IMG/VR virus record: IMGVR_UViG_3300010362_000063
Coordinates: 1-33,347 of that record
Direction: 5' to 3' (one strand)
DNA from: a virus
Taxonomy: Duplodnaviria; Caudoviricetes
Length of the DNA: 33,347 nucleotides
The notes under the pieces were generated by a model. That model was not told the DNA's origin, ran no database searches, and saw only the letters and a program-made list of their open reading frames with translations. The position numbers and the translations under genes are program-made. The number at the start of each line of letters is the position of its first letter. Position 1 is the stretch's first letter. Shown one piece after another: positions 3,117 to 27,203 of the stretch.

Positions 3117-5129
3117 ATGGCCGGCAAGGTCGGCACCGCCTACGTCGACACGGAGCTCGACCCGTCCGGGATCCGGAAGGGGCTGCAGCAGGTCGAAGGC
3201 GAGACCAAGACGCGGATGGGCACCGTCCGCAAGGACCTGAAGGCCGGCTTCGAGAAGGCGTTCGTGCCGGCGACGGTCGCGCTCGGCGCGGTCGCGGTCG
3301 GCGCCAAGAAGGCGATCGACGCCGCCAGCGACCTCGCCGAGTCGCAGAACGCCGTCCGCGTCACCTTCGGGCGCTCGGCGAAGGCCGTCCTCGATTTCAG
3401 CGAGAAGGCGGCCACGAAAGCGGGCCTCTCGATGCGCGAATTCAACGAGCTGGTGACGCCGGTCGGCGCGTCGCTGCGAAACGCCGGCCTCGGCGCCGAC
3501 GAGGCCGCCAAATCGTCGATCGCGCTCACGAAGCGCGCCGCCGACATGGCGTCCGTGTTCAACACGTCGGTGCCCGAGGCGCTGCAGGCGATCCAGGCCG
3601 GCCTCAGAGGCGAGGCCGACCCGCTCGAGCGGTTCGGTGTCGGCCTCTCCGACGCCGCCGTCAAGGCGAAAGCGGCGGCGATGGGACTCAAGACGCAGCA
3701 CGGCGAGCTCGACGCGCACGCGAAAGCGCAGGCACGGATGGCGCTGCTGATGGAGCAGACCAACCGGCTGCAGGGCGACTTCGAGAACACGAGCGACGGC
3801 GCCGCCAACCAGCAGCGGATCCTGCACGCGCAGATGGAGAACGTGAGCGCCGAGCTCGGGAAGGCGCTGCTGCCGGCGTTCACGCAGCTGGTGAAGATGC
3901 TCGGGAAGCTGGTCGGCCTGATCGCCCGCCACCAGACCGCGTTCAAGATCCTCGTCTCCGTGTTCACCGCGTTCGCGGCCGCGATCGTCGCCGTCAACCT
4001 CGCCATGAAGGCCTACGCCGCCGGCACCGTGATCGTGAAAGCGGCGGTCGCCGCCTGGACGGCCGTGCAGTGGCTATTGAACGCGGCGCTGTCGGCGAAC
4101 CCGATCGGCCTGGTCGTGATCGCGCTCACGGCGCTGGTCGCCGGCCTCGTGCTCGCCTACCAGAAATCAGAGACGTTCCGGGACATCGTCGACGCCGCGT
4201 TCGAGGCCGTGCTCGACGTCGCCAACGAGGTCGCCGACTTCTTCACCGACGACATCCCGGCCGCGTTCCAGGCCGTCCTCGACTGGGTCAAGAAATACTG
4301 GCCCGCGATCGCGATCCTGATCGCCGGCCCGTTCGCGCCGCTGGTCATTCTCGCCGGCGACGGATTCGGGATCCGCACGGCGCTCCAGAACGCGATCACC
4401 GGCCTGATCTCCTGGATCAAAGGCAAAGCGAGCGCGCTCTACAACGCCGGCGCCGACCTCGGCCGCCGGCTCAAGCAGGGCGTCGTCGACGCGGTCACCG
4501 GGATCGGCAACGCCGTCTGGGCTGTGGTCGACAACATCCGCGCCCGGATCGGGCAGGGCGCGCAGACGATCATCGGCTGGGGCAAGAGCGTCGGCGGCTG
4601 GGTCAAGCAGGGCGTGGTCGACGGCCTCGTCGGGATCGGCCTCGGCGCCTGGGGGCTCGTCGACAACGTGTGGCAGATGCTGAACGACAACTCGAAGACG
4701 ATCATCGGCTGGGGCAAGAGCGTCGGCGGCTGGCTGAAGGCCGGCATCCTCGCCGCGCTCAAGGGACTCAAAGACGCGATCAAGTCGCTGCTCAGGAAGG
4801 CGCTGCCGGGGCCGCTGGAGAAGATCGCAGGCCTCCGCTCCGCCGCCCCGGTACCCGGGCCGGCACCGGCACCCCAGAGCGGCCTCCGCGCAGCCGCAGG
4901 ACCGCAGGCCGCCGGCACGGCCGGCGGCGGGCTCGCCGGGCCCGCGCCGGTCGGCTACCAGCTGCGACGCGCGCTCTCCGGTCTCACACCGGCCGCGGCC
5001 GCGGCCGGGCAGCAGCCGCTCGAGGTGCGCGTCTTCATCGGCGACACGGAGCTGCGCGGCATCGTCCGCACAGAAGTCAGGACCGCCGACAACCGGACCG
5101 CGCAGACCCTGCTCGCAGGAGCCCACTAG
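3117..5129 (+). CDS. Tape measure protein (670 aa)
   Basis: Ala/Gly-rich, with AIQAGLRGEADPLERFGV, QWLLNAALSANPIGLVVIAL..LVAGLVLAYQKSETFR and Trp-periodic repeats. Confidence 0.95.
   Translation: MAGKVGTAYVDTELDPSGIRKGLQQVEGETKTRMGTVRKDLKAGFEKAFVPATVALGAVAVGAKKAIDAASDLAESQNAVRVTFGRSAKAVLDFSEKAATKAGLSMREFNELVTPVGASLRNAGLGADEAAKSSIALTKRAADMASVFNTSVPEALQAIQAGLRGEADPLERFGVGLSDAAVKAKAAAMGLKTQHGELDAHAKAQARMALLMEQTNRLQGDFENTSDGAANQQRILHAQMENVSAELGKALLPAFTQLVKMLGKLVGLIARHQTAFKILVSVFTAFAAAIVAVNLAMKAYAAGTVIVKAAVAAWTAVQWLLNAALSANPIGLVVIALTALVAGLVLAYQKSETFRDIVDAAFEAVLDVANEVADFFTDDIPAAFQAVLDWVKKYWPAIAILIAGPFAPLVILAGDGFGIRTALQNAITGLISWIKGKASALYNAGADLGRRLKQGVVDAVTGIGNAVWAVVDNIRARIGQGAQTIIGWGKSVGGWVKQGVVDGLVGIGLGAWGLVDNVWQMLNDNSKTIIGWGKSVGGWLKAGILAALKGLKDAIKSLLRKALPGPLEKIAGLRSAAPVPGPAPAPQSGLRAAAGPQAAGTAGGGLAGPAPVGYQLRRALSGLTPAAAAAGQQPLEVRVFIGDTELRGIVRTEVRTADNRTAQTLLAGAH
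4564..4733 (+). repeat. Perfect 38-bp direct repeat inside the tape measure gene (4564-4601 / 4696-4733; 132-bp period)
   Basis: AGACGATCATCGGCTGGGGCAAGAGCGTCGGCGGCTGG occurs twice (TIIGWGKSVGGW). Confidence 0.9.
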
Positions 5130-8440: not shown

Positions 8441-8565
8441 GGGGAGCGCCGCCGGCGGCGCAGACGATCGAGCAGGCGAGACCGGCGAGCCCGCCGGCGA
8501 GCGTGGTCGAGCTGGCGTGCGGCGTCCTCGCGCGCCTGCGTCCACGGCTCCCGCGGCACCGTCAC
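8425..8565 (-). CDS. Possible Arg-rich micro-ORF (46 aa)
   Basis: GTGA-coupled to the HTH gene stop; MTVPREPWTQAREDAARQLDHARRRARRSRLLDRLRRRRRSPHTSP. Confidence 0.4.
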   Translation of the reverse strand: MTVPREPWTQAREDAARQLDHARRRARRSRLLDRLRRRRRSPHTSP

Positions 8566-8765
8566 TCGTCGGCCTCCGCGCGCGCCTCGACGAGCAGATC
8601 GTGCACGCGGCTATACGAGAGCCCGGCGTAGGGGGCGATGTCGCGCAGCGACTCCCCCGACTCGTGCGCGGCCAACACCGCACGGGCGAGCTCCGCCCGC
8701 GCCTTCTCGATCCGCGCCGCAGCGCGGGCGACTCGACGGAGGTCTGCCTGTGCCAAGCCGGTCAC
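8562..8765 (-). CDS. Small helix-turn-helix protein (candidate regulator)
   Basis: AHESGESLRDIAPYAGLSYSRVHDLL HTH; likely start GTG 8765 downstream of the predicted promoter. Confidence 0.7.
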   Translation of the reverse strand: MTGLAQADLRRVARAAARIEKARAELARAVLAAHESGESLRDIAPYAGLSYSRVHDLLVEARAEADE

Positions 8766-8782
8766 CTTCTCACGGGCCAACA

Positions 8783-8816
8783 CCCGAACCGTACCGCCGT
8801 TCGGGAAACCGAACAA
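8783..8816 (-). promoter_or_regulatory. Leftward sigmaA-like promoter with overlapping palindromic operator
   Basis: -35 TTGTTC (8816-8811), 17 bp, -10 TACGGT (8793-8788); palindrome GTTCGG-GAAA-CCGAAC at 8799-8814; extra half-site CCCGAAC at 8783. Confidence 0.55.
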
Positions 8817-8882
8817 ACCTCAACAGGCCGCCAGGGACGCTCTGTGGAAGGTGTGGAAAAGCGCCGAGCGCCTTTCGAGCCG

Positions 8883-8891
8883 TGCTAGCGT
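8883..8891 (+). promoter_or_regulatory. Rightward extended -10 promoter
   Basis: TGc-TAGCGT fits TGn-TANNNT, ~70 nt upstream of the PAS gene. Confidence 0.4.
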
Positions 8892-8963
8892 CGCCCCTTC
8901 TGCTCGGCGGCCGAGCCCCGGAACAGGACGACAAACCGCTCTGCGGCAAGGGGGAAAGGGCTG

Positions 8964-9599
8964 ATGCGACCGACCATCACGACGACCGGCAGCGACGGCT
9001 TCGGCGACCTCGACCCGAACGAGCTCTGCGCGATCGCGCGCCGACTCCGCAGCGCGATCGGCGCCGGCCCGCACGCGATCGACCCCGACACGCACGCGCT
9101 CGAGGTCGCGCTGCTCGTGCTCACCCTGCGCGCACCCGTCGAACCGGCGCTGCGGCGCCAGGTCGAACGCGCAGCGGCCTGCGTCGCCGTCCTCGACGGA
9201 AGCGGCGTCCTCTGCGCCGTCAGCCACGACCTCGCCGCCCGGCTCGGCTACGAGCCGGCCGAGCTGGTCGGCCGCGTCGGCTGGAGCCTGAGCGTCGACC
9301 CCGACCGATCCCGAGGCCGGATGGACGAGCTCGTCACAGACGGCCAGCGCGCCGGCGTCTCCCAGCTGCGCCACCGTGACGGGCGCACGCTCGCCGTCCG
9401 CTTCGACGCGCGCGCCGTCCAGGTCGACGGGCGCACCCTGTACCTGGCGATCGGCCACGAGATCGACGCCGACCCCGGGCGCGCGCGCCTCCTCGACGTC
9501 GACCGGCTCGACGTCGCCGCCGCCGTCGCCCCCGCGTGCGCCTGCGGCTGCGAGCTCGCGCACGCCGCCGGGATCCTGCTCGAGCCGGAGGCCGCATGA
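8964..9599 (+). CDS. PAS-domain protein with no output domain
   Basis: VAVLDGSGVLCAVSHDLAARLGYEPAELVGR...LRHRDGRTLAVRFDARAVQVDGRTLYLAIGHEI is a PAS+PAC signature. Confidence 0.75.
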   Translation: MRPTITTTGSDGFGDLDPNELCAIARRLRSAIGAGPHAIDPDTHALEVALLVLTLRAPVEPALRRQVERAAACVAVLDGSGVLCAVSHDLAARLGYEPAELVGRVGWSLSVDPDRSRGRMDELVTDGQRAGVSQLRHRDGRTLAVRFDARAVQVDGRTLYLAIGHEIDADPGRARLLDVDRLDVAAAVAPACACGCELAHAAGILLEPEAA

Positions 9600-9715
9600 G
9601 CGGCTGGCTGCTCGTCGCCGCGGTCGCCGTCGCCGCCGTCGCCCTGTTCGCGGCGATCGCCGCCGAGGCCGCCGACCACCTGGCCGCCGGCCGCCGACGA
9701 CGGAGGCAGCCGTGA
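9596..9715 (+). CDS. Small membrane peptide (39 aa)
   Basis: ATGA/GTGA coupled; MSGWLLVAAVAVAAVALFAAIAAEAADHLAAGRRRRRQP. Confidence 0.6.
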   Translation: MSGWLLVAAVAVAAVALFAAIAAEAADHLAAGRRRRRQP

Positions 9716-10095
9716 GCGGCGACTGGCTCGACGAGCTGACCCCCGACGAGCGCGCCGAGTGGGAGCGCTTCGTCGACCACGTCCGCCGCAGCACGTTGCA
9801 GGGAATCGACAAATCGGCGTTCGTGATCAGCCTCGTCCCGCGCGGCGAGACCGACATCAAGTTCGCGGTCGAGCTCGGCCTGTCGATCATGCTCGACAAG
9901 CCGATCCTCGCCGTCGTCATGCCCGGCGCCGAGGTGCCCGACAAGCTGCGCCTGGTCGCCGACCGGATCATCCGTGCCGACGTCGACCTCGAGGCCGGCC
10001 GGCAGCAGGTCGCAGCCGCGATGCGCGACCTGCTCGACGACGACGACCCGGGCCCGAAGCCCGGCGACAGCACAGCGCTCGGAGGCGCATCGTGA
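9712..10095 (+). CDS. Nucleoside 2-deoxyribosyltransferase/TIR-like fold protein (127 aa)
   Basis: IDKSAFVISLV...DIKFAVELGLSIMLDKPILAV resembles the 'ELG.A.ALGKPI' motif; SD GGAGG. Confidence 0.55.
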   Translation: MSGDWLDELTPDERAEWERFVDHVRRSTLQGIDKSAFVISLVPRGETDIKFAVELGLSIMLDKPILAVVMPGAEVPDKLRLVADRIIRADVDLEAGRQQVAAAMRDLLDDDDPGPKPGDSTALGGAS

Positions 10096-10214
10096 GGATC
10101 GTGCTCGGCTCGGCGACCGCGACCGGCTTCCTCACCTGGCCCGGCCGCGGCCCCTGGCCGGCGCCGGCGCCGAAGCCGAAGCCGAAGCCGAAGGCCGCCA
10201 GGAAGGCCGCGTGA
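10092..10214 (+). CDS. Micro-ORF with PKPKPKPK tail (40 aa)
   Basis: GTGA coupled at both ends; SD GGAGG; contains (CCGAAG)x4. Confidence 0.5.
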   Translation: MRIVLGSATATGFLTWPGRGPWPAPAPKPKPKPKAARKAA

Positions 10215-10645
10215 CCCGCGCGCAGCTGGAGGCGATCGTCGCCTGGTGGCGGCCACGGCTCGGCCTCGAGCGCTGGGCGCTGGAGGTGCGCTGGGACCGC
10301 GACCCCGACGAGCCCAGCTTCACCGACACCCAGAACGCGTTCATCTGGCGCGCCCGCGACTACGAGGAGGCACGCCTCTACTTCAACCCTGCCAAGCACG
10401 GCGACTGGGACCGCGAGCGCGCGAACCAGATCGCCGTCCACGAGTTGCTCCACCTCGTCTGCCGCGAGGCCGAATGGATCCTCGACCTGCTCGACGAGCA
10501 GCTGCACCGCGACGTCGACACGATGATCTCCCGCTCGCACCATCACGCGCTCGAGGGCGCGATCGACCGGGTCGCCTGCCGCCTAGTCGAGCTCGTCGCC
10601 GAGCTGGGCGAGCTGCCACCGCAGGCGAAGGCGAAGGCCGCGTGA
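10211..10645 (+). CDS. HExxH zinc metallopeptidase-like protein (144 aa)
   Basis: IAVHELLHL plus a downstream LEGAIDRVA candidate third ligand. Confidence 0.7.
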   Translation: MTRAQLEAIVAWWRPRLGLERWALEVRWDRDPDEPSFTDTQNAFIWRARDYEEARLYFNPAKHGDWDRERANQIAVHELLHLVCREAEWILDLLDEQLHRDVDTMISRSHHHALEGAIDRVACRLVELVAELGELPPQAKAKAA

Positions 10646-10872
10646 GCGACGAGCTGCCGGAGCTCTTGACCGTCGACGAGCTCGCCGCCCGCTCACGCGA
10701 AAGCCGACGCACGATCCAGCGCCGGATCGCCGCCGGCGACATCGACGTCGTCCGCCTCTCCCCGCGCACGATCAGGATCCCGCGCGCCGCCGCCGCCCGC
10801 TACCTCCACGGCGATTCGGGCATGATGGGTGACGAAACAACACTTCATCCGCTACCGAGGAGGACCGCGTGA
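10642..10872 (+). CDS. xis: Excisionase (HTH_17-type)
   Basis: LLTVDELAARSRESRRTIQRRIAAGDIDVVRLSPRTIRIPR; directly upstream of the integrase. Confidence 0.85.
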   Translation: MSDELPELLTVDELAARSRESRRTIQRRIAAGDIDVVRLSPRTIRIPRAAAARYLHGDSGMMGDETTLHPLPRRTA

Positions 10873-12155
10873 CCGACAACACGCACCTGCTTCCCGGCGT
10901 CGACCAGCACGGCTCCGGCTACCGCGTCCGGCTCAGCTTCAACGGCCGCCCCTACATCCAGACCGGCCTCACCAGCCCCGACCAGGCAAACGAGCTCCGC
11001 ATCCAATGGGGGCGCCTCCGCGACGCCGGCCTGACACCGGCGCACGCGCCGCGCGAAGAAACCCTCGCCGAGGCGTGCGAGGCGCTGCTCGCCCGGAAAC
11101 GCACGACCGTCAGCCGCAAAACGAAACGCAGGCTGCGCCGCCGCGGCATCGAGTGGTGGGAACGCGCCACCAGACCGTGGCGCGAAGGCGACTTCGCCTC
11201 CACGCCGCTGTCGCTACTCGACCGCAACCGGCTCGAGGACCGCATCCTCGCGCGCGCCCTCGAAACGCCGAAGACCGCCCGTGACGAGCTCGACGGGCTG
11301 AAGGCGGCGCTCCGCTTGGCCGGCAGCCGCAACGTCCGCTTCGACCCGGCGATCCTGACGATCGAACGGCCGGTCGTCACCCCGCGCCAGCGGCGCGCCG
11401 CCGACGCCCACCAGCTCGAACTGCTCGCCGACCTGGCACCGCCCTACGCTCAACGGATGCTCCGAATCAAGGGCACGGTCGGCAACCGCTTCGAAGAGCT
11501 CGCCACCCTGACCGACGACCGCGTCGACCTCGAGCAGGCGACGATCTTCATCCCCGCCCACCTCTGCAAGGAGGGCGAGGACAAGACGATCGACCTCACG
11601 CGCGAGGAGGTGCACGAGCTCCGCCACCAGCTGCTCGAACGCGCCCCCGGCACGCCGCTCGTGTTCCCGACCAAGACCGGCCGGCCGTGGCGGCACTACC
11701 AATTCCTGCGGCTCGTCTGGTACAAGGCGCGCGCCCGCGCCGACCACGCCTGGCGCGAGACGCACGGCCTCGACGAGCAGGCCGACACGCCGTTCCTCTG
11801 GCGGCTGCTCGACCCGGACGGCCGACCCGTCGTCGACGAGGACGGCGACCCGGTCTGGGACGGACTCAAGCCGCACGACCTGCGCGCGACCGCGGCCACG
11901 CTAATGCGCGACGCCGGCTTCCCGAAAGAGGAGGCCGCCGCCAGGCTCGGCCACGCCGACTCCGGGGCGCTGATCGACCGCCTCTACGACCAGGGCGACC
12001 GGCGCGCCCGCGTGCGCCGCGCGATCGACGAGCACGCCCCGCACGGCCTCCGCGCCGCAACGAAAAGCGGGGCGCCGCGACCGTCCGCTAAGCCGGCCGC
12101 GACGCCCCTGACGCAGCCGTCCGACAAGCCGGCTGCGACTCGGAAGGCAGGGTAG
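10869..12155 (+). CDS. int: Tyrosine integrase
   Basis: Catalytic set present: R (GNRFEEL), K (LCKEG), HxxR (PHDLRAT), H (RLGHAD), Y (LYDQ). Confidence 0.93.
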   Translation: MTDNTHLLPGVDQHGSGYRVRLSFNGRPYIQTGLTSPDQANELRIQWGRLRDAGLTPAHAPREETLAEACEALLARKRTTVSRKTKRRLRRRGIEWWERATRPWREGDFASTPLSLLDRNRLEDRILARALETPKTARDELDGLKAALRLAGSRNVRFDPAILTIERPVVTPRQRRAADAHQLELLADLAPPYAQRMLRIKGTVGNRFEELATLTDDRVDLEQATIFIPAHLCKEGEDKTIDLTREEVHELRHQLLERAPGTPLVFPTKTGRPWRHYQFLRLVWYKARARADHAWRETHGLDEQADTPFLWRLLDPDGRPVVDEDGDPVWDGLKPHDLRATAATLMRDAGFPKEEAAARLGHADSGALIDRLYDQGDRRARVRRAIDEHAPHGLRAATKSGAPRPSAKPAATPLTQPSDKPAATRKAG

Positions 12156-12165
12156 CCAAGTGCCG

Positions 12166-12431
12166 TTTGTCCAGAACCTGTCCATTCCCGCCTCCCACAC
12201 GACCCTCAGCCGCCGCGAAAGACCTGCTCTCGCGAGGGTTTTGGGTCGAAGGCGCATACGGGATTCGAACCCTGATGCGCCGGTAACGACAGGAGGCGCC
12301 GACAGGCGCCAGGAGGCGCCAGAAACGGCGTAGTTGACCGGGATCCCGGCACCCCGGCACACGCCACGACGCGACACGTCGCGCCACGAGATGACGCCGG
12401 ATCCGGCACGGTTTTGTCCAAAACCTGTCCA
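12166..12431 (+). repeat. Integrase arm-type sites flanking the att core, plus Xis-like 10-bp periodic repeats
   Basis: TTTGTCCAGAACCTGTCCA (12166-12184) and TTTGTCCAAAACCTGTCCA (12413-12431); periodic AGGCGCC repeats (12288-12330) and CGCCACGA-like repeats (12360-12392). Confidence 0.75.
12251..12280. other. attP core matching a tRNA 3' half (minus strand GGGTTCGAATCCCGTATGCGCC)
   Basis: T-arm plus acceptor 3' strand at 12251-12272; imperfect inverted repeat GCGCATacGGG-[ATTCGAA]-CCCtgATGCGC around a 7-bp spacer; ~100 bp downstream of int. Confidence 0.85.
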
Positions 12432-12542
12432 GGCCGGGGCCGACGACGGCCGCCCCGGGGTGATTCCGGTGGCGCGCGCGGCAGGCCGCAGCGCCGCGCG
12501 ACGGGCACCCCGGGCGGCCGACCTCGAGCTCGGAGGCGCCGC

Positions 12543-12593
12543 GTGACCCGGGCTCGCACCCCGTACGAGGACACCTCGGTCCCGGCTGAGCGC
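12543..12593 (+). pseudogene. N-terminal fragment of an interrupted conserved phage gene
   Basis: SD GGAGG at 12532 then MTRARTPYEDTSVPAER. The matching C-terminal part resumes at ~13500. Confidence 0.6.
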
Positions 12594-12611
12594 CGCGCTT
12601 CAACGGAGGCC

Positions 12612-12648
12612 AGCATGAGCGAGCATGAGCGAGCATGAGCGAGCATGG
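12612..12648 (+). repeat. 10-bp tandem repeat containing four ATGs
   Basis: cAGCATGAGC GAGCATGAGC GAGCATGAGC GAGCATGG; ATGs at 12615, 12625, 12635 and 12645. Confidence 0.9.
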
Positions 12649-12892
12649 CACCGAGAGCAGGTACTCGCGCGGATGCCGCTGCGGCGGCTGCCGTGACGCC
12701 GCGACGATCGCACGCCGGAAACGCCGGCAGGGTGAAGGGCCGGGCATCCTGGTGGGGCAACACACGCATGGCAAGTGGGCGTATCAGCGGTGGGGGTGCC
12801 GGTGTGCCGTGTGTCGAGCCGACCACGCCAGGCATCAGCGCCTGTTCCTGGCCCGCCGCCGAGAACGAGCGCTTCAGCGGAGGGAACAATGA
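12635..12892 (+). CDS. Cys-rich protein with two HG..Y..GCRC..CR repeats
   Basis: HGTESRYSRGCRCGGCR and HGKWAYQRWGCRCAVCR, a common actinophage Zn-binding motif. Confidence 0.75.
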   Translation: MSEHGTESRYSRGCRCGGCRDAATIARRKRRQGEGPGILVGQHTHGKWAYQRWGCRCAVCRADHARHQRLFLARRRERALQRREQ

Positions 12893-13140
12893 CCCGGCGT
12901 CTGCGAAAGCCAGGTGAGTGCGTTCCGCTCTGCGGTGCCAGCCAGCGCTACGGGCGGTTTGTCAAGCCCTGGTATCACGACCGGCGCTGCCCTGCCCATC
13001 CCGACAATCACACAGAGCAGCTCTACGGCACCGCCGACCACTGGCCTCCAGCCGCCCAGCTCGCCGTCGGCGAGATCGCCGTCTACTCCGGCCGCGGCTT
13101 CGGGCCGTGGCCGCAGACACGGAAGGCGTGCGGGCTGTGA
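12889..13140 (+). CDS. Chimeric ORF (83 aa) ending in a copy of the Rpf-like C-terminus
   Basis: ATGA coupled; the last 37 aa match 14939-15052 except one F/Y change. Confidence 0.55.
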   Translation: MTRRLRKPGECVPLCGASQRYGRFVKPWYHDRRCPAHPDNHTEQLYGTADHWPPAAQLAVGEIAVYSGRGFGPWPQTRKACGL

Positions 13141-13336
13141 ACGCGAGCGACCGGGCGCAGGAACGCGTCGCAGCCTGCCGCAGCTGGCTCACACACGAAA
13201 GCCCACGCTGGTGGGAGAACTGGACGGGCCTGCTCGACGACGTCGACAAGCTCTCCCAGGCGCTCGAGGAGGCGACCTACGAGCGCGACCAGTGGGAGGA
13301 GCGCTACCACGAGCTGCTCCAGTCGCCCCCTCATGA
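13137..13336 (+). CDS. Small coiled-coil protein; as read, its frame runs on to 13850
   Basis: GTGA coupled, VNASDRAQERVAACRSWL...WEERYHELLQSP. One extra C in the 13326-13330 run would give an ATGA-coupled stop at 13336. Confidence 0.45.
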
Positions 13337-13461
13337 GCCCGACACTCGAAGACGGTGCGCGCCGCGCCTGGCTCGAATGGGGTCACGCCTACGCGCTATC
13401 CACGGTCTGCTCCTGCTGCGGCCGAATCCAATACTGCCGCGGCCGCCACCGCCGGCCGTGA
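13333..13461 (+). CDS. Cys-rich micro-ORF (42 aa)
   Basis: MSPTLEDGARRAWLEWGHAYALSTVCSCCGRIQYCRGRHRRP, ending in a GTGA overlap. Confidence 0.45.
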   Translation: MSPTLEDGARRAWLEWGHAYALSTVCSCCGRIQYCRGRHRRP

Positions 13462-13850
13462 CCGCCCCGTTTTTTTGGGCGGCGCGCGCGCGGATGCCCG
13501 CCGGCGCGCGCGGCGTCCAGTTCGACGAGGAATGGGGCGAGCAGGGATCGACCTGCCGCGTCCGCTTCGCCTGGCCGCACGCCGGCGCGCACGTCTCGAT
13601 CGTGCGCCTGCAGGCGACAACCCTGCCCGCCAACGGCCGGGTCGGGCTCGAGCAGCGCGAACGGCAGGCCTGGCGCGGCCTCGCCTGGTATCTCGACTCG
13701 AACCTGAAGGCGGCCACGTTCGGCCTGATCCCGTTCGAGGCGATCTTCCTCGCCCACTTCGAGGTCGCAGGCGGTGCCACCGTCGGCGAGAACCTGATCC
13801 CCCAGCTCGAACAGGGCCGGCTCGCGCTTCCGGCCGGGAGCGAGACATGA
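13458..13850 (+). CDS. C-terminal part of the interrupted conserved phage protein
   Basis: GARGVQFDEEW...EQRERQAWRGLAWYL..NLKAATFGLIPFEAIFLAH..GATVGE family pattern. Confidence 0.6.
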   Translation: MTAPFFWAARARMPAGARGVQFDEEWGEQGSTCRVRFAWPHAGAHVSIVRLQATTLPANGRVGLEQRERQAWRGLAWYLDSNLKAATFGLIPFEAIFLAHFEVAGGATVGENLIPQLEQGRLALPAGSET

Positions 13851-14014
13851 GGGCGCGCCGGCGCCGGCTGCGCCGAAACCCGCCCGTCCGCGTCGACGGC
13901 CGCTGCGTCGTCTGCGGCCGCCCCCGGCCGGCGCTCGCCGCCCGCCACGGCGACCCGTTCTGCAAGACCGACTGCGCACGCGGCTGGCACGAAGCGCTGC
14001 GAGGACCGGCATGA
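13847..14014 (+). CDS. Treble-clef zinc finger micro-protein (55 aa)
   Basis: CVVC-x15-CKTDC with PFC; ATGA coupled. Confidence 0.65.
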   Translation: MRARRRRLRRNPPVRVDGRCVVCGRPRPALAARHGDPFCKTDCARGWHEALRGPA

Positions 14015-14427
14015 GGACCGCGACCTGCCGCAGCTGCGGCGCGCAGATCGTGTGGGCCGAAACCGAGAAGGGCCGCCGCATGCCCGTCGACGCCGACCCG
14101 AACCCGCTCGGCCAGATCGTGCTCCGCGGCCACGGCACGACACCGCTCGCGATCTGCGGCGTCCCCGACGACGCCTACCCCGGCGAGCCCCGGTACGCCT
14201 CCCACTTCCAGACCTGCCCCCAGGCCGGCGACTGGCGCCGCCGGCGACCCCCGGAGCGGGCCTCGACGCGGTGGCGGATCGTGAGCGCACCCGACCCCGA
14301 CATCGACCGCACGAAGCTGGCGGTCGAGCTCGAGGTGACGACCGCCTCCCCCGAGGTCGTCGCCGCGATCGAGGACGCCGCCAGCCGCGCCGGGATCGAG
14401 CTCGAACGGATCGAGGAGCAGGCGTGA
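14011..14427 (+). CDS. Zn-finger phage protein
   Basis: CRSCGAQIVWAETEKGRRMPVDADP...SHFQTCP motif. Confidence 0.75.
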   Translation: MRTATCRSCGAQIVWAETEKGRRMPVDADPNPLGQIVLRGHGTTPLAICGVPDDAYPGEPRYASHFQTCPQAGDWRRRRPPERASTRWRIVSAPDPDIDRTKLAVELEVTTASPEVVAAIEDAASRAGIELERIEEQA

Positions 14428-14501
14428 GCTGGCTCGTCCCGGTCGCCGCCGCCGTGCTGCTGGTCGCAGCGCTCGTCTACGCGTTCACGAGGGGCGAATG
14501 A
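14424..14501 (+). CDS. Small membrane peptide (25 aa)
   Basis: MSWLVPVAAAVLLVAALVYAFTRGE, coupled at both ends. Confidence 0.55.
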   Translation: MSWLVPVAAAVLLVAALVYAFTRGE

Positions 14502-15052
14502 CGACCAAGCGACGTCGGCGGCGGGTGCGCGTCCTCTGGGCGAGGGTCGCCGGGCTCGCCGCCCTGCTCGTCGCCGGGATCGCGGTCGGCGGGCCGCTGC
14601 TCGCCGCCGCCGGCGCCGACGTCGACGGCGACCCGCCACCCCGGCCCCTGGACCCGACCGACTGGCGCGCCGTCGCGCTCGACGCCCAGACACAACTCGA
14701 GCGCACGCGGCGGCGGTCGCGCCGTGCGCATCGCCTCGCGGCCCGCCGCGGCCGGATCATCGGCCGGCTGCGGCAGGCGATGCGCGCACACGACGAAGGC
14801 TGGGCGCGCACCGGGCTGCGCTGCATCCAGCCGCACGAAGCCGGCTGGCAGGCCTCGACGGGCAACGGCTACTTCGGCGGCCTGCAGATGGACCTCGACT
14901 TCCAGCGCACCTACGGGCTGCCGCTGCTCGAGGCGCTCGGCACCGCCGACCACTGGCCGCCGGCGGCGCAGCTCGCGGTCGGCGAGATCGCCGTCTACTC
15001 CGGCCGCGGCTACGGGCCGTGGCCGCAGACACGGAAGGCCTGCGGCCTGTGA
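14498..15052 (+). CDS. Resuscitation-promoting factor (Rpf)-like lytic transglycosylase, membrane-anchored or secreted
   Basis: N-terminal TM; CIQPHEAGWQASTGNGYFGGLQM...Q...GYGPWP..CGL (catalytic Glu, GNG..GGLQ, WP motifs). Confidence 0.85.
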   Translation: MTTKRRRRRVRVLWARVAGLAALLVAGIAVGGPLLAAAGADVDGDPPPRPLDPTDWRAVALDAQTQLERTRRRSRRAHRLAARRGRIIGRLRQAMRAHDEGWARTGLRCIQPHEAGWQASTGNGYFGGLQMDLDFQRTYGLPLLEALGTADHWPPAAQLAVGEIAVYSGRGYGPWPQTRKACGL

Positions 15053-16368
15053 GCGTCGTCCTCGCCGACCCGGACGTCGCGCTCTACCACGGCGACGCGC
15101 TCGAGGTGCTCCGCACGCTCCCTGACGCGTCGGTTCATTGCTGCGTCACCTCGCCGCCGTTCTACGGGCTCCGCGACTACGGCACCGGCAGCTGGGAAGG
15201 CGGCGACCCCGACTGCGACCACCGCCGGCCCGTCTCGCAGCGCTCGCGCGCCTCCTCCAGACTCGAGGGCGGCAAGGCGACCGTCGCCGAGGCGCAGACC
15301 GGCTACCGCGACCGCTGCCGCTGCGGCGCCGAGCGCGTCGACGACCAGGTCGGCCTCGAACCGACCCCCGACGCCTACATCACCCGGCTCGTCGAGATCT
15401 TCCGTGAGTTGCGGCGCGTGCTGCGCGACGACGGCACGCTCTGGCTCGAGCTCGGCGACAGCTACGCAAGCCAGCCGGGCGGCGACCCGCGCACCGGCTT
15501 CAACTCGCGCTACTTCGGCAAGGATTACCGGCCCGGGAAGCAGGCCGCCGCGGCCGACCATTTCCCCGCCACGCTCGACCGGCGAGCGGCGGGCACGAAA
15601 CGCAAAGACCTGCTCGGCATCCCCTGGCGGGTCGCGTTCGCGCTCCAGCAGGATGGCTGGTGGCTGCGCGCCGAGATCATCTGGGCGAAACCGAACGCGA
15701 TGCCCGAATCCGTGCGCGACCGGCCAACACGCGCACACTCGACCCTGTTCCTGCTCGCCAAGAGCGGCCGCTACTTCTACGACCAGGACGCCGTCCGTGA
15801 GCCGTGGGCCGACAACCGAAACGGCGCCAGCGGCGCCCGGCCCGGAACGCCGGAGGCCTACGCCGACGCCGCCGGCCGCGCAGGCGACACAGGACTCGCC
15901 CGCTTCAACACCGGCGCGCGGCACGGCCGCGGCGGCCTCGAAGGCGGCGCCTACGCCCCGCCCGGGCAGACCCCACACGGAAACGCGCGCGGCCCCGACG
16001 GCCGCCACAAGACCACCGTCACCGCCGGCGACGGCTCCGTGCAGCACCGCGACGGCGAGCGGTGGCCGAACCCGAACGGCCGCAACATGCGGTCGGTCTG
16101 GACGATCCCGACCTCGGGCTACGACGGCGCCCACTACGCCGTGTTCCCGGCCGAGCTCGCCCGCCGCTGCATCGCCGCCGGCTGCCCCGAAGGCGGCACC
16201 GTGCTCGACCCGTTCGTCGGCTCCGGCACCGTCCCCGACGTCGCCCGCCGCATGGGCCGCCACGCGATCGGGATCGACCTCAACCCCGCCTACCTGCGCG
16301 AGCACGCCGCCGCCCGGCTCGCGCAGCTGTCCCTGTTCGCACAACCGACCGAGGAGGTGCCCGCATGA
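15049..16368 (+). CDS. DNA methyltransferase, beta class (N4-C/N6-A)
   Basis: TSPPF motif IV precedes the DPFVGSGT motif I; WAKPNAMPESVRDRPT, HYAVFP. Confidence 0.92.
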   Translation: MSVVLADPDVALYHGDALEVLRTLPDASVHCCVTSPPFYGLRDYGTGSWEGGDPDCDHRRPVSQRSRASSRLEGGKATVAEAQTGYRDRCRCGAERVDDQVGLEPTPDAYITRLVEIFRELRRVLRDDGTLWLELGDSYASQPGGDPRTGFNSRYFGKDYRPGKQAAAADHFPATLDRRAAGTKRKDLLGIPWRVAFALQQDGWWLRAEIIWAKPNAMPESVRDRPTRAHSTLFLLAKSGRYFYDQDAVREPWADNRNGASGARPGTPEAYADAAGRAGDTGLARFNTGARHGRGGLEGGAYAPPGQTPHGNARGPDGRHKTTVTAGDGSVQHRDGERWPNPNGRNMRSVWTIPTSGYDGAHYAVFPAELARRCIAAGCPEGGTVLDPFVGSGTVPDVARRMGRHAIGIDLNPAYLREHAAARLAQLSLFAQPTEEVPA

Positions 16369-16676
16369 CCACAACCGAACCCGATGTCCGGCTGCTCGCC
16401 GCCGCCGACCGCGGCGAAGGCCTCCACCGCCGCGCCGCCGAGATCATCGACGACCTCGACCGGCTCGACGACGAAGAAACCCGGCTCTTCCGGCGCATGG
16501 AAGACGCACGCGCCCAGCTCTTAGAGATCGGGTCGCGGTGGGAGCCCGTCCTCAGCCCCGCCCGGCAGGCCGCCTACGGCGCCTGGCGGCAACACGGCAA
16601 CCGCGAGCACCGGCTCGAACTCGCCAGCCTGGCCGAAGCGCCCGTCCCGCCCGAGGCGCCGTCCGAGGCGCCGTGA
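16365..16676 (+). CDS. Hypothetical helical protein (103 aa)
   Basis: SD GAGGAGG, ATGA/GTGA coupling. Confidence 0.65.
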   Translation: MTTTEPDVRLLAAADRGEGLHRRAAEIIDDLDRLDDEETRLFRRMEDARAQLLEIGSRWEPVLSPARQAAYGAWRQHGNREHRLELASLAEAPVPPEAPSEAP

Positions 16677-17122
16677 GCGTCCGCACCGCCGTCCGGGTCG
16701 CCGTCCACGACCGCAAACCCGAACCCGCCAGCTACCGGCTCGCACGCGGCCGCATGTTCGAAGCCGACACCACACGCGAGTGGAAACAGATCGTCCGCGA
16801 CCGCGCGATCCTCGCCATGGGCGGCGAACCACCCTTCGAAGGGCCGCTCCGGCTCAACCTCAAGGTCACCCTGCGCCGGCCGAAAGGCCACTACCTCGGC
16901 GGCGACCCCAAACGCGAGCTCTCCGCCGAAGGCCGCCGGCACGCCCGGCCAACAACGAAACCCGACCTGACCGCCCTCCTGCGCGCGGTCGAAGACGCGC
17001 TCACAGACGTCTGCTACCGCGACGACTCCCAGGTCGCCGAACAGCGCACCGCGAAGGCCTACGGGAACAGGCCCGGCGTCGAGGTCGAGCTGGTGATGCT
17101 CTCCCCTTTAGGCGACGCATGA
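16673..17122 (+). CDS. rusA: RusA-family Holliday junction resolvase
   Basis: FEGPL...RPKGHY...KPDLTALLRAVEDALT..YRDDSQV....KAY. Confidence 0.85.
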   Translation: MSVRTAVRVAVHDRKPEPASYRLARGRMFEADTTREWKQIVRDRAILAMGGEPPFEGPLRLNLKVTLRRPKGHYLGGDPKRELSAEGRRHARPTTKPDLTALLRAVEDALTDVCYRDDSQVAEQRTAKAYGNRPGVEVELVMLSPLGDA

Positions 17123-17238
17123 GACGGCTCAGGGCGGCGATCGGCGACGCCGTCTTCGCCTGCGGCTGGACCGCCGAGCAGCAGGTCGAAGCCGTGATCG
17201 GAATGCTCGAACAGGCCGGCGCCGGAGTCGAACCGTGA
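17119..17238 (+). CDS. Micro-ORF (39 aa)
   Basis: ATGA coupled; MRRLRAAIGDAVFACGWTAEQQVEAVIGMLEQAGAGVEP. Confidence 0.45.
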   Translation: MRRLRAAIGDAVFACGWTAEQQVEAVIGMLEQAGAGVEP

Positions 17239-17311
17239 CCCGGCCACTGACGTCAGCGGCGAAACGGGCTGCACGCGTGCCCCCGGAGCCGAAAAACCCG
17301 CAAACAGCGGC

Positions 17312-18043
17312 ATGAGCGTGGCCGCCGACAGCGTCCTGCTCACGCTCCTGCTCCGCGAGCAGAACACGGTCTGGATCCCGATCGGCGAGCTCGCCGACGA
17401 ATGCGACCTGACCGACTCGCAGGTCCGGCGGGCGCTCCGCGAGCTCCGGCAGGACGGCCGCATCCTGCCGGCCGGAAAACGCGGAAACACGACCGGCTGG
17501 AGCTTCCCCGACGACGACTCGGAGGCTCGCAGCGCGGCGACGTCACCGGAAACGACGTCCCCCGAAGGGGGGCCGTCGGTTCCCGGTGGCCGGTCGGCCG
17601 AGCGGCTGACCGAGCCTGCGACCCCCACCGCACCCGTTGCCAGACCCGACGACGGCGAGCCGACCGGCGAGGAGGCGGCTGAGCTGCGGCGGCTCGGCCT
17701 CGCGCACTGCTACTCGATCCTCGACCACGTCTACGACGACCTGCTCGGCCAGCCCGACCTGCCCGCCGGCGAGTGCGGCGAATGCGACCAGGAGGCACGC
17801 CGCCGGTACCGGCTCGGCCGGTTCGCGCTCTGCCGCGACTGCCGCCTGCGCCGGCTGAGGGCGAAGCAGCAGCTCGAGGCGGCCGCGGCGGTGCTCGAGA
17901 TCGACCTGCCCACGATCGAACCGGCACCGGAGCCGGTCGAGATCGCGGCTCTGCCCGACGCCGAGGTGGTGCTGCTCGAACGGGCCCGCGACCGGCGCAA
18001 CGGCAACACGCCGAACCCGCTCTGGGACGACCCCGACTTCTGA
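17312..18043 (+). CDS. Winged-HTH plus Zn-finger protein (possible replication initiator)
   Basis: IGELADECDLTDSQVRRALRELRQDGRI; CGEC...CRDC; acidic tail WDDPDF. Confidence 0.6.
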   Translation: MSVAADSVLLTLLLREQNTVWIPIGELADECDLTDSQVRRALRELRQDGRILPAGKRGNTTGWSFPDDDSEARSAATSPETTSPEGGPSVPGGRSAERLTEPATPTAPVARPDDGEPTGEEAAELRRLGLAHCYSILDHVYDDLLGQPDLPAGECGECDQEARRRYRLGRFALCRDCRLRRLRAKQQLEAAAAVLEIDLPTIEPAPEPVEIAALPDAEVVLLERARDRRNGNTPNPLWDDPDF

Positions 18044-18840
18044 TGATGAAGCCCGAGCAGGCGAATGAATTCACGGACGGACTCGGCCAGGTCTTCGCTG
18101 GAGCGGTCCGCCTCGCCGGGCTCGCCGTCGAGCTCGACGTCCCGCAGGCGCTCGGGCTGACCCCGGAGGAGTGGGCGCAGCGGCGCCTCGCCGGGCATGT
18201 TCGTCTCAGCATCGCGGAGCGGCGCGCGGTCGTCGACGCGAACCCGGAGCGGTCGAGCCGCGAGCTCGGCGAGGCGCTCGGCGTCGACCACGCGACCATC
18301 GCCCGCGACCGGCAAGCCGTCGCAGATGCGACAGCGCCGACCCGCGACGAGCCGAGCGAGCAGGCCGCGCCCGTCGCAAATGCGACAGCGAATGGCCGTG
18401 ACCGCTCGGCCCTGTTCACGTCCGAGACCGCCGAATGGTCGACGCCGCAGGATCTGTTCGACGAGCTCGACGCCGAACTCGGCTTCGACCTTGACGTCTG
18501 CGCGACCGCCGCCAACGCGAAGTGCGAGCGCTACTTCACAGAGGCCGACGACGGACTCACGCAGCGCTGGGTGGGCGCCTGCTGGATGAACCCGCCCTAT
18601 GGCGACGCGATCGGCCGCTGGATCGCTAAGGCGTGGAGCTCGGCCGAGGAGGGCGCAACCGTCGCCTGTCTCGTCCCAGCGCGCGTCGACACCGGCTGGT
18701 GGTGGGACTACTGCCGACGCGGTGAGATCCGCTTCCTGCGCGGTCGCCTCAAGTTCGGCGGTGCCGAGGCCTCGGCGCCGTTCCCTTCGGCGCTCGTCGT
18801 CTTCCCGCGCGAGCCGTGCGTCCTCTGGTGGGAGCGATGA
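18043..18840 (+). CDS. HTH fused to phage-type N6-adenine (Dam-like) methyltransferase
   Basis: HTH SSRELGEALGVDHATIARDR; EWSTPQDLF, LDVCA, DGL.Q.W, NPPYG, LVPARVDT.WW, FLRGRLKF and APFPS motifs. Confidence 0.9.
   Translation: MMKPEQANEFTDGLGQVFAGAVRLAGLAVELDVPQALGLTPEEWAQRRLAGHVRLSIAERRAVVDANPERSSRELGEALGVDHATIARDRQAVADATAPTRDEPSEQAAPVANATANGRDRSALFTSETAEWSTPQDLFDELDAELGFDLDVCATAANAKCERYFTEADDGLTQRWVGACWMNPPYGDAIGRWIAKAWSSAEEGATVACLVPARVDTGWWWDYCRRGEIRFLRGRLKFGGAEASAPFPSALVVFPREPCVLWWER
18317..18390. repeat. Two 20-bp repeats, each containing a 14-bp palindrome
   Basis: GTCGCA-GA-TGCGAC (18319-18332) and GTCGCA-AA-TGCGAC (18373-18386). Confidence 0.9.
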
Positions 18841-19191
18841 AGCCCGCGTTCCAAGTGGGCGACTGCTTCAAGCTCGCCGCGATCAAATTGCGCGTCGAGG
18901 CCGGCCGCCACGGGAACGGCGACCAAGTGCTCAGCCTACGGTCGCCCGGCGGTACCTGGGCGAAGCTGCCGATGGACCTCGGCGCGCTACAGGCCGACTT
19001 CTACGACCAGAACGAGCCGCGCCGCTATCGCTGGACGGGCGAGCACGAAGGCCGCTCGATGTATCCAAGCCTGCTCAACTGCGCCGTCGTCGAGGGCTGG
19101 CGCGAGGCGGTGCGGCGCAAGCTCGAGCCGTACCGCAAGCGGCCGCCGCCCGAGCGCGCCGTCGATCCGTGGAGCGACCCCGACTTTCTAA
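18837..19191 (+). CDS. Hypothetical protein, read in-frame into the RecT-like gene
   Basis: ATGA coupled; ends DPWSDPDF with TAA (19189-19191) one base out of frame. Confidence 0.55.
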
Positions 19192-19208
19192 GCGAGGGAG
19201 GTACCAGC

Positions 19209-19847
19209 ATGAGCACGACCGAACAGCAGCAGAAGTCGCAGGCGCTGATCCCGGCCCGCGACGACGCCGACATCCAACGCATCGCCCGGCTCGGCCAATG
19301 GCTCGCCGCCAGCGAGCAGCGCGACCCGACCCCCGCCGAACAGGGCGCCGCGGCCGCGCTCCGGCTCTGGCTCGCGCAGGAGCTCGGCCTCCCCCTGCGC
19401 GCCGCCTCCGAGCTGTCGATGGTGAAGGGCCGCCTCGTCGTCAGCGTGCAGCTACTGCGCGCGCTGGCGCGGCAGGCCGGCTACCGCGTCGAGCGGGTCG
19501 AGCTCGACGACGAGCACTGCACGGCGGCCGTGATCCGCGCCGACAACGGGGCCGAGCTCGGCCGCGCCACGTTCACGATCGACGACGCCCGCCGGGCGAA
19601 CCTGATCAAAGACCGCGGTGCCTGGGAGACCTACCCACAACGGATGCTCTGGGCCCGGGCCGCAGGCTGGGCGATCAAAGACACGATCCCTGAGGTCGCG
19701 CTCGGCCTGGTGCTGCACGAGGAGGCCGACGAGATCCGGGGCGGCTACGGCGTGATCGACGCCGAGGCGATCCCCGTCGACGAGCTCCAAGCCGACGAGC
19801 TACCCGACGACGACGAGCCGCAGCCGGCACCGGAGGCGCAGCCGTGA
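19209..19847 (+). CDS. RecT/Redbeta-like single-strand annealing protein
   Basis: Own SD GGAGG at 19197; TFTIDDARRANL...WETYPQRMLWARA..WAIKDTIPEV..GL..HEE. Confidence 0.75.
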   Translation: MSTTEQQQKSQALIPARDDADIQRIARLGQWLAASEQRDPTPAEQGAAAALRLWLAQELGLPLRAASELSMVKGRLVVSVQLLRALARQAGYRVERVELDDEHCTAAVIRADNGAELGRATFTIDDARRANLIKDRGAWETYPQRMLWARAAGWAIKDTIPEVALGLVLHEEADEIRGGYGVIDAEAIPVDELQADELPDDDEPQPAPEAQP

Positions 19848-19957
19848 GCGGCGGCCAGATCTTCGCGCTCGCCTGGCTGATCCTTGCCGCCCTGGTCGCG
19901 GTCGGCCTGCTCGCCTACCTCTACCTCGGACCGGGGTCGAGCCGGTGGTACCGGTGA
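19844..19957 (+). CDS. Small membrane peptide (37 aa)
   Basis: MSGGQIFALAWLILAALVAVGLLAYLYLGPGSSRWYR, GTGA coupled at both ends. Confidence 0.6.
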   Translation: MSGGQIFALAWLILAALVAVGLLAYLYLGPGSSRWYR

Positions 19958-20433
19958 CCGGCTCCGACCTGGTCGTCCCGGTCACCGGCGAGCTCGTCCC
20001 CGCCGACGACCCGGCCGCGATCGCACGCGCGCTCGACCAGCTCGCCAGCTGGCAGCGCGCCCTCGCCGACTTCCGGCGCGCCCTCACCGGGCTGCTCGTC
20101 GAAGAGGCACAACGCCAGGGCACAAAAACGCTTCACCTGCAGGGGGCCGAGGTCACGCTCACGGGCGGGTCGAAACGCACCTGGGACGTCGACCGGCTGC
20201 TCGAGGAGCTCGCCGCCGCCGGGCTGCCACACGACCGGCTCGTCGACCTCGTCAAATGGACACCCAGAGTCAACGCGTCCGTGGCGCGGCAGCTGCGGGC
20301 CGCCAACCCGGAATACGCGCGCATCCTCGACGACGCGCAGAGCGAGGAGCCGGCGCCGTGGCGGGCGACCGTCGAGCTCGCCCCCGACCCGGCGCTGCCC
20401 GCCGGCCACGACGACGACGTCGTCGACGAATGA
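19954..20433 (+). CDS. Hypothetical phage protein (coiled-coil)
   Basis: GTGA coupled; VPVTGELV...QGTKTLHL; GC3-rich codon usage. Confidence 0.7.
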   Translation: MTGSDLVVPVTGELVPADDPAAIARALDQLASWQRALADFRRALTGLLVEEAQRQGTKTLHLQGAEVTLTGGSKRTWDVDRLLEELAAAGLPHDRLVDLVKWTPRVNASVARQLRAANPEYARILDDAQSEEPAPWRATVELAPDPALPAGHDDDVVDE

Positions 20434-20636
20434 AGGGTCGCCTGCTCACCTGCACCTGCTGCCGCGGCCGGATCCTCGTCCACGAGCTGCCGGGCCCGTT
20501 CATCGACCCGAACCTGTACGTGTGCACGGACTGCCTGCGCCCCGTCGACGACCCGCAGGGCCGGCAGCTGGCGTTGGCCGAGGGGCGCGAGGAGACACGC
20601 GACTACGACCCGTCGATGGCCGAGATCCCGTACTGA
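20430..20636 (+). CDS. Zn-ribbon micro-protein (68 aa)
   Basis: CTCC...CTDC; ATGA coupled; ends AEIPY. Confidence 0.6.
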   Translation: MKGRLLTCTCCRGRILVHELPGPFIDPNLYVCTDCLRPVDDPQGRQLALAEGREETRDYDPSMAEIPY

Positions 20637-20638
20637 CC

Positions 20639-20839
20639 GTGGGCGCACCCGTCGACCTCGAGCTCGACCGGCGGCGCCGCCACCGCAGCGCCGCCGCCGA
20701 CGGCTGGCGGCCACGCGAAACCTGCGGCTGCCAGCGGCCGGACCGGGTCGCGCTCGCCGGCGGCAACGGCTACCACCTCGCCAACATGTGCGGCCGTTGC
20801 CGACGCCGCCTCGGCCGACCGGGCATAGTCCGGCCGTGA
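20639..20839 (+). CDS. Cys-containing micro-protein (66 aa)
   Basis: CGC...CGRC; fills the gap and ends in a GTGA overlap. Confidence 0.5.
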   Translation: MGAPVDLELDRRRRHRSAAADGWRPRETCGCQRPDRVALAGGNGYHLANMCGRCRRRLGRPGIVRP

Positions 20840-21162
20840 CCGGAATCCCGAACAGCGGCCGGCTCGAGGTGCAAGGGATCGTCTCCGCGCAGAGCGGCGA
20901 GCCCTTGGTGCAGTTCCGCCAGCTCGACGGCGACGGGAAGGTCGAGGCCGAATGGCAGGCCGGCGTCGCCGACGCGCGCGAATGCGCACAGCAGATCGTC
21001 GAGGCGGCGATGAACGCGACCTACGACGCCGCCCTGATCGCCTGGGCGAAAGAGACCTGGCCCGACGACGAGCTGATGGGCGCACGGATGCTGCAGCTGA
21101 TCCGCGACTACCGCGCCGACTCCTGGGGCCTTCCCGACCAGCCCGAGGACTGGCGCACGTGA
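20836..21162 (+). CDS. Hypothetical phage protein (108 aa)
   Basis: IVSAQSGEPLVQF...AR..AQQIVEAA.NA.YDAAL; coupled at both ends. Confidence 0.7.
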   Translation: MTGIPNSGRLEVQGIVSAQSGEPLVQFRQLDGDGKVEAEWQAGVADARECAQQIVEAAMNATYDAALIAWAKETWPDDELMGARMLQLIRDYRADSWGLPDQPEDWRT

Positions 21163-21395
21163 GCGACGCGCCGTCCTGCCCGGCCGGGCATCCGATGGTC
21201 GTCCGCGACCGCTTCCGCTTCGACCACGAACCCGGCGACACGCCCCGCGACAGCTTCCTGCTCGCCCGCTTCGCCGAGGCCGGCGTCGAGCTCGGCGCCG
21301 AGGTCACGCTCTACTACTGCGCCGCCTGCGACTACGCGCAGGCCGCGTTCGCCTACCCCGACCCCGGCGACGAAGCCGGCACGGCGACGCCCTAA
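21159..21395 (+). CDS. Hypothetical Zn-binding protein (78 aa)
   Basis: CPAGH...YCAACDY; GTGA coupled. Confidence 0.6.
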   Translation: MSDAPSCPAGHPMVVRDRFRFDHEPGDTPRDSFLLARFAEAGVELGAEVTLYYCAACDYAQAAFAYPDPGDEAGTATP

Positions 21396-27166: not shown

Positions 27167-27203
27167 GGAAACCTCCTTGCTGGACAAAACGAACACGACC
27201 ACC

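Follow-up and report, generated by a model that had tools for sequence, protein, structure and literature searches.

A candidate disconnection switch at attP in a siphovirus without a recognisable cI repressor

The 33,347-nucleotide stretch of viral DNA analysed here (the window; a soil phage, Caudoviricetes, IMG/VR record IMGVR_UViG_3300010362_000063) carries an excisionase gene (xis), a tyrosine integrase gene (int) and the attachment site attP inside what appears to be a single rightward early operon. We lean towards the reading that integration into a host tRNA-Glu gene silences lytic growth by disconnecting the early genes, without a cI repressor, because the sole recognisable early promoter, P_R, lies upstream of xis-int and the replication genes lie beyond attP. 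In the circular genome one transcript would run from P_R across attP into the early genes, and in the prophage the early genes would lie at attL without a SigA-type promoter. In four relatives a terminator at attL would act as an insulator, with passage requiring read-through or antitermination. Xis would bind attP and, in most relatives, P_R too, keeping xis-int expression low in the prophage as Apl and Cox do, and a small helix-turn-helix (HTH) protein encoded leftward probably represses only itself.

Results

Gene layout around attP

The features of the rightward operon and of the attachment site are as follows.

8886..8891, plus strand: predicted -10 hexamer TAGCGT of the rightward promoter P_R
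8964..9599, plus strand: PAS protein, an N-terminal extension and a PAS domain, without HTH core and transmembrane (TM) helix (PAS_9 E 2.7e-4, below cut-off)
9596..9715, plus strand: 39-aa hydrophobic TM peptide, cargo
9712..10095, plus strand: NDT-like protein, mobile actinophage cargo (phrog_18163 E 4.5e-24; Pfam E 0.005, below cut-off)
10092..10214, plus strand: 40-aa PK-rich peptide, cargo
10211..10645, plus strand: HExxH+E small zinc-metallopeptidase fold (selecase/SprT-like), position-variable
10642..10872, plus strand: xis (HTH_17)
10869..12155, plus strand: tyrosine integrase, catalytic residues intact
12166..12184, plus strand: P-arm repeat, predicted integrase-binding type
12249..12272, minus strand: attP core, the 3' end of tRNA-Glu(CTC), 24 nt identical
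12288..12332, plus strand: four direct repeats at 10-12 bp spacing (GGCG at 12295, 12305, 12315 and 12327), likely Xis sites, predicted
12413..12431, plus strand: P'-arm repeat, predicted integrase-binding type
12543..21395, plus strand: co-directional early genes (methylases, RusA, replication initiator, RecT-like)

The initial annotation had described a coupled operon running from the PAS gene to int, followed by attP and by early genes in the same direction, and this arrangement is confirmed in all three parts. All six gene junctions of the operon are 4-nt stop/start overlaps with a purine-rich ribosome-binding site, attP is identified by its tRNA-Glu core and arm repeats, and the genes beyond it are indeed co-directional with int. 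The 'AA' at the C-terminal ends of the encoded proteins was considered as a degradation tag and rejected, being a consequence of the coupling sequence. The attP core is intergenic and xis is present, while the integrase residues R207, K234, D337-L-R339, H362 and Y373 are invariant in 33 of 33 homologs. The hexamer assigned to P_R ranks among the commonest hexamers found 10-16 nt ahead of ATG starts in G000, the genome bin that holds the phage contig.

In host genomes carrying this integrase family, a full convergent tRNA directly follows the integrase in 6 of 7 regions, and the core is repeated 4-31 kb upstream. With the tRNA convergent with int at attR, integration would send all genes right of attP to the far end of the prophage.

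Comparison of thirteen phages

The integrase used as a single query against viral contigs gave no locus, and an integrase alignment gave 13 loci. The comparison covers 13 phages, namely the window, L016 and 11 from these loci (L061 and L062 are one contig, L068 and L069 near-duplicates). The order promoter-(cargo)-xis-int-(cargo)-attP-co-directional early genes is found in all 13, with attP marked by a tRNA remnant in 10 phages and by arm repeats alone in three.

As a proxy for the -10 element we used TANNNT, which in this lineage peaks 12-16 nt ahead of ATG and has T at position 6 in 240 of 350 cases. The 300 nt leading up to the xis operon contain this hexamer in 10 of 13 phages, and those leading up to the first early gene contain it in 3/13; between the core and the first early gene it is found in a single phage. 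The background is 116 of 836 tiles (14%), and the Fisher p of 0.017 is overstated by the kinship of the phages. In the window, the first plus-strand TANNNT right of the core stands at 18937, 6.7 kb on and within a gene; the pattern is present in 6 of 10 intergenic stretches checked and absent from the 387-nt att stretch. Adding TAGAAN to the pattern raises the count to 13/13, a variant set aside as picked after seeing the data, and a sigma-70 promoter scan of the window, a method unsuited to 73% GC, returned nothing.

Exchange of genes across attP is expected of one early operon with xis-int-attP inside it. For 11/54 genes left of attP (one self-overlap dropped), another phage has a homolog on the right side of attP, versus 2/42 late-side controls. 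Moreover, a strong hairpin followed by T4 lies just right of the core in L016, L064, L066 and L070 (z -4.6 and -5.0 for two of them), and no clear terminator was seen right of the core in the window.

Repeats common to attP and P_R

When P_R regions are ranked by the direct repeats that they have in common with attP, the phage's own pair comes first or second of 13 in 10 phages (permutation p<1e-4), with sharing above that of all 200 random same-phage windows. This pattern is pointing to the signature of a predicted Apl/Cox-like excisionase acting at both att and the early promoter. Judging from the repeats, Xis feedback at P_R would hold for most relatives, with the window as an exception.

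A motif like CCGCAA-N2-WGCGG, found after the fact, lies upstream of the xis operon in L016, L059, L060, L063 and L065-L068 (8/13; background 9%). Related hairpins flank the att cores and may be host-factor sites, not only terminators.

Genome completeness and host

The window makes up nearly all of contig C108 of bin G000 and represents a circular 33.4-kb siphovirus genome encoding terminase, portal, capsid, tail and lysin in addition to the early genes. The contig ends overlap by 7 bp and join in frame into a 277-aa open reading frame, a head-tail gene, and the homolog in L163 spans the same junction point; the genome is thus complete. A search of Logan contigs for a bridge over the ends found none. 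The initial annotation had recognised no cI-like repressor and had allowed for one in an unsequenced gap. There is no such gap, and its observation stands, since the contig has no Xre/HTH_3 match (29 HTH_3 matches in G000, none on C108); an Xre profile built in this analysis matched its own training genes only. In the wider family, HTH_3 stays below cut-off in all 15 records.

The integrase profile has matches in 46 of 401 genomes of the family of G454 and in none of 400 other genomes of the order of G000, and two integrase homologs are named Gaiellaceae/Gaiella. One of the 46 matching genomes, G475, is unpublished and supports nothing beyond this count. Furthermore, the Glu tRNAs of G000 do not fit the attP core, and the core fits a tRNA of one genome in that order. 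Because both the integrase family and the attB point to Gaiellaceae, the host is probably of this family and not of the bin lineage, and the phage contig was probably mis-binned. No lexA over cut-off was found in G000.

Control region

The leftward small HTH gene and the divergent control region noted initially are present where they had been placed.

8562..8756, minus strand: small HTH_58 protein, about 64 aa (Pfam HTH_58 E 1.3e-7; start TTG at 8756 inferred from homologs)
8788..8793, minus strand: predicted -10 hexamer TACGGT of the leftward HTH promoter
8799..8814, no strand assigned: 16-bp palindrome GTTCGG-N4-CCGAAC covering the -35 of the leftward HTH promoter, present once in the window
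8843..8860, no strand assigned: TGTGGAAGG/TGTGGAAAA pair, DnaA-box-like

The palindrome is likely the operator of the small HTH protein. Among 11 homologs of this protein, GTKCGG-N4-CCGMAC over the HTH -35 scores at least 8 of 10 in 9/9 stand-alone cases with upstream sequence (at least 9 in seven of them) and 7 in both cases within a cI operon, whereas 90 of 3000 random stretches reach a score of 9. Because the palindrome is single-copy in the window, the small HTH protein most likely represses itself rather than lytic promoters. A reading of the palindrome as a LexA box was rejected, since the boxes of G000 have the inverse arrangement, CGAAC-N4-GTTCG. The control region of the window resembles the PAS/HTH pair of L064 in inverted orientation, and for this reason its rightward promoter probably belongs to the PAS gene itself.

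The pair at 8843-8860, which from the consensus we take to be DnaA-box-like, is the sole match to TTWTNCACA in the window (five in the whole of G000). The TGTGGAAGG unit also occurs upstream of the PAS gene in G854, the closest relative by capsid (83%; record L169), where DnaA-box-like repeats lie at 3464-3490 ahead of an HTH-less PAS gene.

PAS protein and its family

The PAS protein of the window matches a phage-PAS HMM (E 9e-27, profile positions 7-130) and has Atlas PAS features of 0.99. The structure model of the family is a confident PAS fold, with matches to LOV/PAS structures at E about 1e-6. Full-length relatives, in which PAS is fused to an Xis-like HTH_17 and a TM helix, are encoded at three loci divergently from xis-int and toward the lysis genes, in the slot that cI fills in L084 and L088.

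L059 6986-7699, minus strand: PAS-HTH_17-TM gene
L064 8356-9006, minus strand: PAS-HTH_17-TM gene
L157 1106-1759, plus strand: PAS-HTH_17-TM gene

In addition, L061 has an HTH_17-TM gene and L070 a decayed piece. Searching without a profile yielded 80 representatives at E<=0.001; many have the HTH alone, and about 30, at under 50% identity, have both domains. The best 150 matches listed for a PAS-HTH profile over 401 host genomes are single-domain or weak. The PAS protein of G854, encoded right after the tail genes, is likewise HTH-less and 33% identical to that of the window, including the N-terminal extension, which weakens the idea that the window protein is mere decay. Sequence comparison thus makes PAS a recurring, regulator-derived gene of the control region.

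Several observations accompany this family. Together with the three genes above, proteins P0094-P0160 form an undescribed phage family with PAS, Xis-like HTH_17 and TM in the repressor slot. Variants join PAS to an Xre HTH (P0156) or place the HTH first (P0157, P0164). In G854, a large serine recombinase (L169 855-2387) stands in place of the tyrosine integrase module and adjoins the PAS gene.

Genes between P_R and xis

In the protease, HELLH (H77-E78-H81) and E115 are invariant in 20 of 20 aligned homologs. Its model (pLDDT 92.5) is nearest to uncharacterised phage proteins and SprT-like proteins, and its structural matches, all weak, rank selecase (Z 8.3, rmsd 4.4, 96 aligned) above PprI (Z 5.7, rmsd 4.2, 93 aligned). 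Peptidase_M78 (PF06114) matches none of 20 family members at E<=0.1, and the Atlas M78 cluster reaches only 0.87 with 10% of members. Of 13 integrase-family records, one has the HExxH gene, which stands there right of attP among the early genes, 5.2 kb past int. Within 2 kb of the HExxH gene, none of 41 homolog loci has xis, PAS, Xre or an integrase of this family; at 18 of these loci the flanking sequence was long enough on either side. Other homologs sit between terminase and portal or among head-tail genes.

The NDT-like protein scores 17.3 bits against PF05014, short of the cut-off of 28.8, has no PADLOC defence match and no PDB sequence match under E 0.85. Its relatives occur in 14 actinophage records, in two of which, on inspection, the gene stands among small hypothetical genes without an integrase; it was found in none of 15 family records searched, a set without a positive control. 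The HExxH and NDT-like genes are mobile early cargo. The cargo genes have normal codon scores, and we infer that the early cargo found between P_R and xis is interchangeable.

Weighing of the alternatives

Several points weigh against silencing by disconnection. The initial annotation remarked that the plus strand has no TANNNT between the core and 12543, which is true of 12275-12543 yet at chance level, as the hexamer is likewise missing from 91% of the window's 269-nt stretches and from 1697 of 2000 dinucleotide shuffles; its proposal that integration cuts the early genes from a promoter near 8886 is supported by the 13-phage comparison and the predicted promoters, and gains nothing from the missing -10 of the window by itself. 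The counts come from 13 phages that are kin and so lack independence, three of the cores were positioned by eye, and many family records are incomplete (6 of the 15 are at least 90% complete). A -10 search would miss promoters that depend on an activator or are read by another sigma factor. The terminators of four relatives would block read-through, and a crude test for canT-like pairing gave no cognate leader/terminator complementarity above that of non-cognate pairs. In the window itself, own attP repeats at P_R rank only 9-11 of 13, there is no second repeat array, and the CCGCAA-N2-WGCGG motif is absent. Furthermore, the seven host regions with this integrase are islands without phage genes and hold no intact integrated prophage, leaving the attL of a real lysogen unseen. 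Finally, relatives with the same small HTH gene can have a normal cI, as in L084 and L088.

It appears unlikely that the region is instead an ordinary divergent switch, in which the HTH_58 protein, or whichever gene fills the leftward slot, would be the immunity repressor, an early promoter would have been overlooked and the place of attP would be incidental. In 10 of 11 loci the small HTH gene does point toward the tail/lysis block and away from the xis operon, and in two loci it stands directly behind an Xre cI (L084 and L088, a classic cI/cro/xis region); the leftward slot is filled by a small HTH, HTH_17-TM or PAS-HTH_17-TM gene in 6 of 13 phages and by a decayed piece in a seventh. However, the palindrome lies on the HTH gene's own -35, 72 bp from the rightward -10, with no copy at attP or the early genes, no leftward regulator was seen in L058, L060, L065, L067 and L068, and 12 of 13 phages have no -10 right of the core. 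A control role for the PAS protein alone, reading a host signal and acting on P_R, Xis or the small HTH protein so as to bring about lysis or induction without SOS, is also doubtful. The divergent PAS-HTH_17-TM fusions, the confident PAS model and the same HTH-less form at the same place in G854 would fit it, as would the lack of any Gram-positive LexA box in the window versus ten in G000. The window protein, on the other side, has no DNA-binding domain and no identified ligand motif, an intact PAS gene is found here in only 3 of 13 phages, and the G854 copy adjoins a serine recombinase without a small HTH gene.

The initial annotation went further and joined the PAS, NDT-like and HExxH proteins into one decision module, with the protease cleaving an HTH repressor as an ImmA/IrrE-type antirepressor. 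Upstream of xis-int the three genes are coupled in translation, the zinc ligands are invariant, and IrrE/PprI share the zincin core at low rank. We nevertheless consider the module highly improbable: no co-occurrence of the three genes was found among the loci and records compared, the order PAS-NDT-HExxH-xis-int is not conserved among relatives, where PAS alone recurs in control regions, and the protease matches no M78 profile, lacks an Xre substrate in the genome, has a fold that appears nearer to selecase/SprT, and has homologs beside terminase, portal and head-tail genes. The PAS gene of this proposal is thus a real control-region gene, outside any conserved NDT/protease module. Lastly, the control region could be a rearranged and partly decayed version of the family switch in a mostly lytic phage, the layout having no switch role. 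The inversion of the PAS/HTH pair relative to L064 and the lack of the family repeats at P_R favour this, and one Logan contig, possibly from the source sample, runs through attP without a break, at a depth close to that of the remaining sequence. No attL/attR junction is among the listed Logan rows. The integrase, xis, core, arms and Xis-type repeats are intact, though, the cargo codon scores are normal and the HTH-less PAS recurs in G854, which makes this explanation quite improbable.

Other features of the window

Between terminase and portal, a leftward moron (25819-27205, minus strand) encodes a 302-aa unknown gene, a short Cys-rich open reading frame and a second small HTH; a similar HTH cassette is found in L059 (19655-19855). 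A 118-bp duplication (13026-13143 and 14938-15055, 92%) repeats the end of a transglycosylase-like gene in a small gene at 12889-13140, and a 321-bp direct repeat of 74% identity (3336-3650 and 29698-30012) is shared by the tape-measure and lysin genes. Three DNA methyltransferases (15049-16368, 18043-18840 and 21901-23268) comprise two N6/N4 enzymes and a Dam-like one, one of the three being fused to ParB. The lysin and holin genes (28817-30828) lie between the portal and scaffold/capsid genes, and after the tail genes in most relatives. A short tandem repeat, GCATGAGCGA, with three start codons, precedes gene 12635 (12595-12642).

Discussion

If silencing by disconnection is true, tailed phages would hold lysogeny as Tn916 does, which would account for temperate phages in which no repressor has been found; prophages of this kind would confer no immunity to superinfection, and their induction would proceed without LexA. 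The PAS-HTH_17-TM family would in addition be a candidate phage sensor in an abundant soil lineage. A broader scenario is improbable in our view, namely that Gaiellaceae soil phages have swapped cI for a switch made of wiring, with Xis as the sole feedback and with the membrane-anchored PAS-Xis-like-HTH family, HTH-less in the window, sensing the host state and setting the excision promoter independently of SOS. In the open-access literature (main texts) we found no temperate phage without a repressor that has a tyrosine integrase and excisionase in one operon, nothing relevant on Gaiella prophages, on lytic genes cut off by integration or on repressor-less actinophages, and no paper combining PAS domain, excisionase, prophage and helix-turn-helix.

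Among known systems, VqmA(Phage) of vibriophage VP882 is reportedly a phage-borne PAS regulator tied to the lysis decision, and is said to combine PAS with a LuxR-type HTH and a known ligand. The proteins described here are likewise putative phage regulators with a PAS domain, but with an Xis-like HTH_17 and a TM helix, and the window copy has no HTH. With ImmA/IrrE, the protease shares HExxH, the downstream glutamate and the zincin core; unlike these, it has no M78 match and no Xre partner, appears nearer to selecase, abylysin and SprT, and varies in position.

Apl of coliphage 186 is described in PMC7498355 as an excisionase whose direct repeats, spaced by one helix turn, are found both at att and at the early promoter. 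Apl and P2 Cox resemble the present phages in the repeats shared by att and the early promoter in 10 of 13, whereas the window's own P_R is without them. Both 186 and P2 also carry an immunity repressor, CI or C.

In BPs, Brujita and Charlie, PMC3694055 places attP inside the repressor gene, with int and rep leftward and xis absent. As in these phages, the proposal is that integration itself establishes lysogeny, and the initial annotation had named BPs as the analogue; this comparison fails on both defining features, as attP is intergenic here and xis is present, and moreover no repressor was found.

In Tn916, as set out in PMC11658703, the promoter Porf7 and its downstream genes are joined only in the circle, with the terminator T1 as insulator and canT as antiterminator. 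Here too the promoter and the replication genes, the former as predicted, lie on opposite sides of att, and an insulator-like terminator is present in 4 of 13 phages. The present case differs in being a tailed phage that integrates site-specifically at a tRNA gene, in that no canT-like antiterminator was found, and in a window without a clear terminator. Taken together, the layout would represent a phage variant of the excision-coupled logic of Tn916, which we infer to be the right analogue, unlike BPs.

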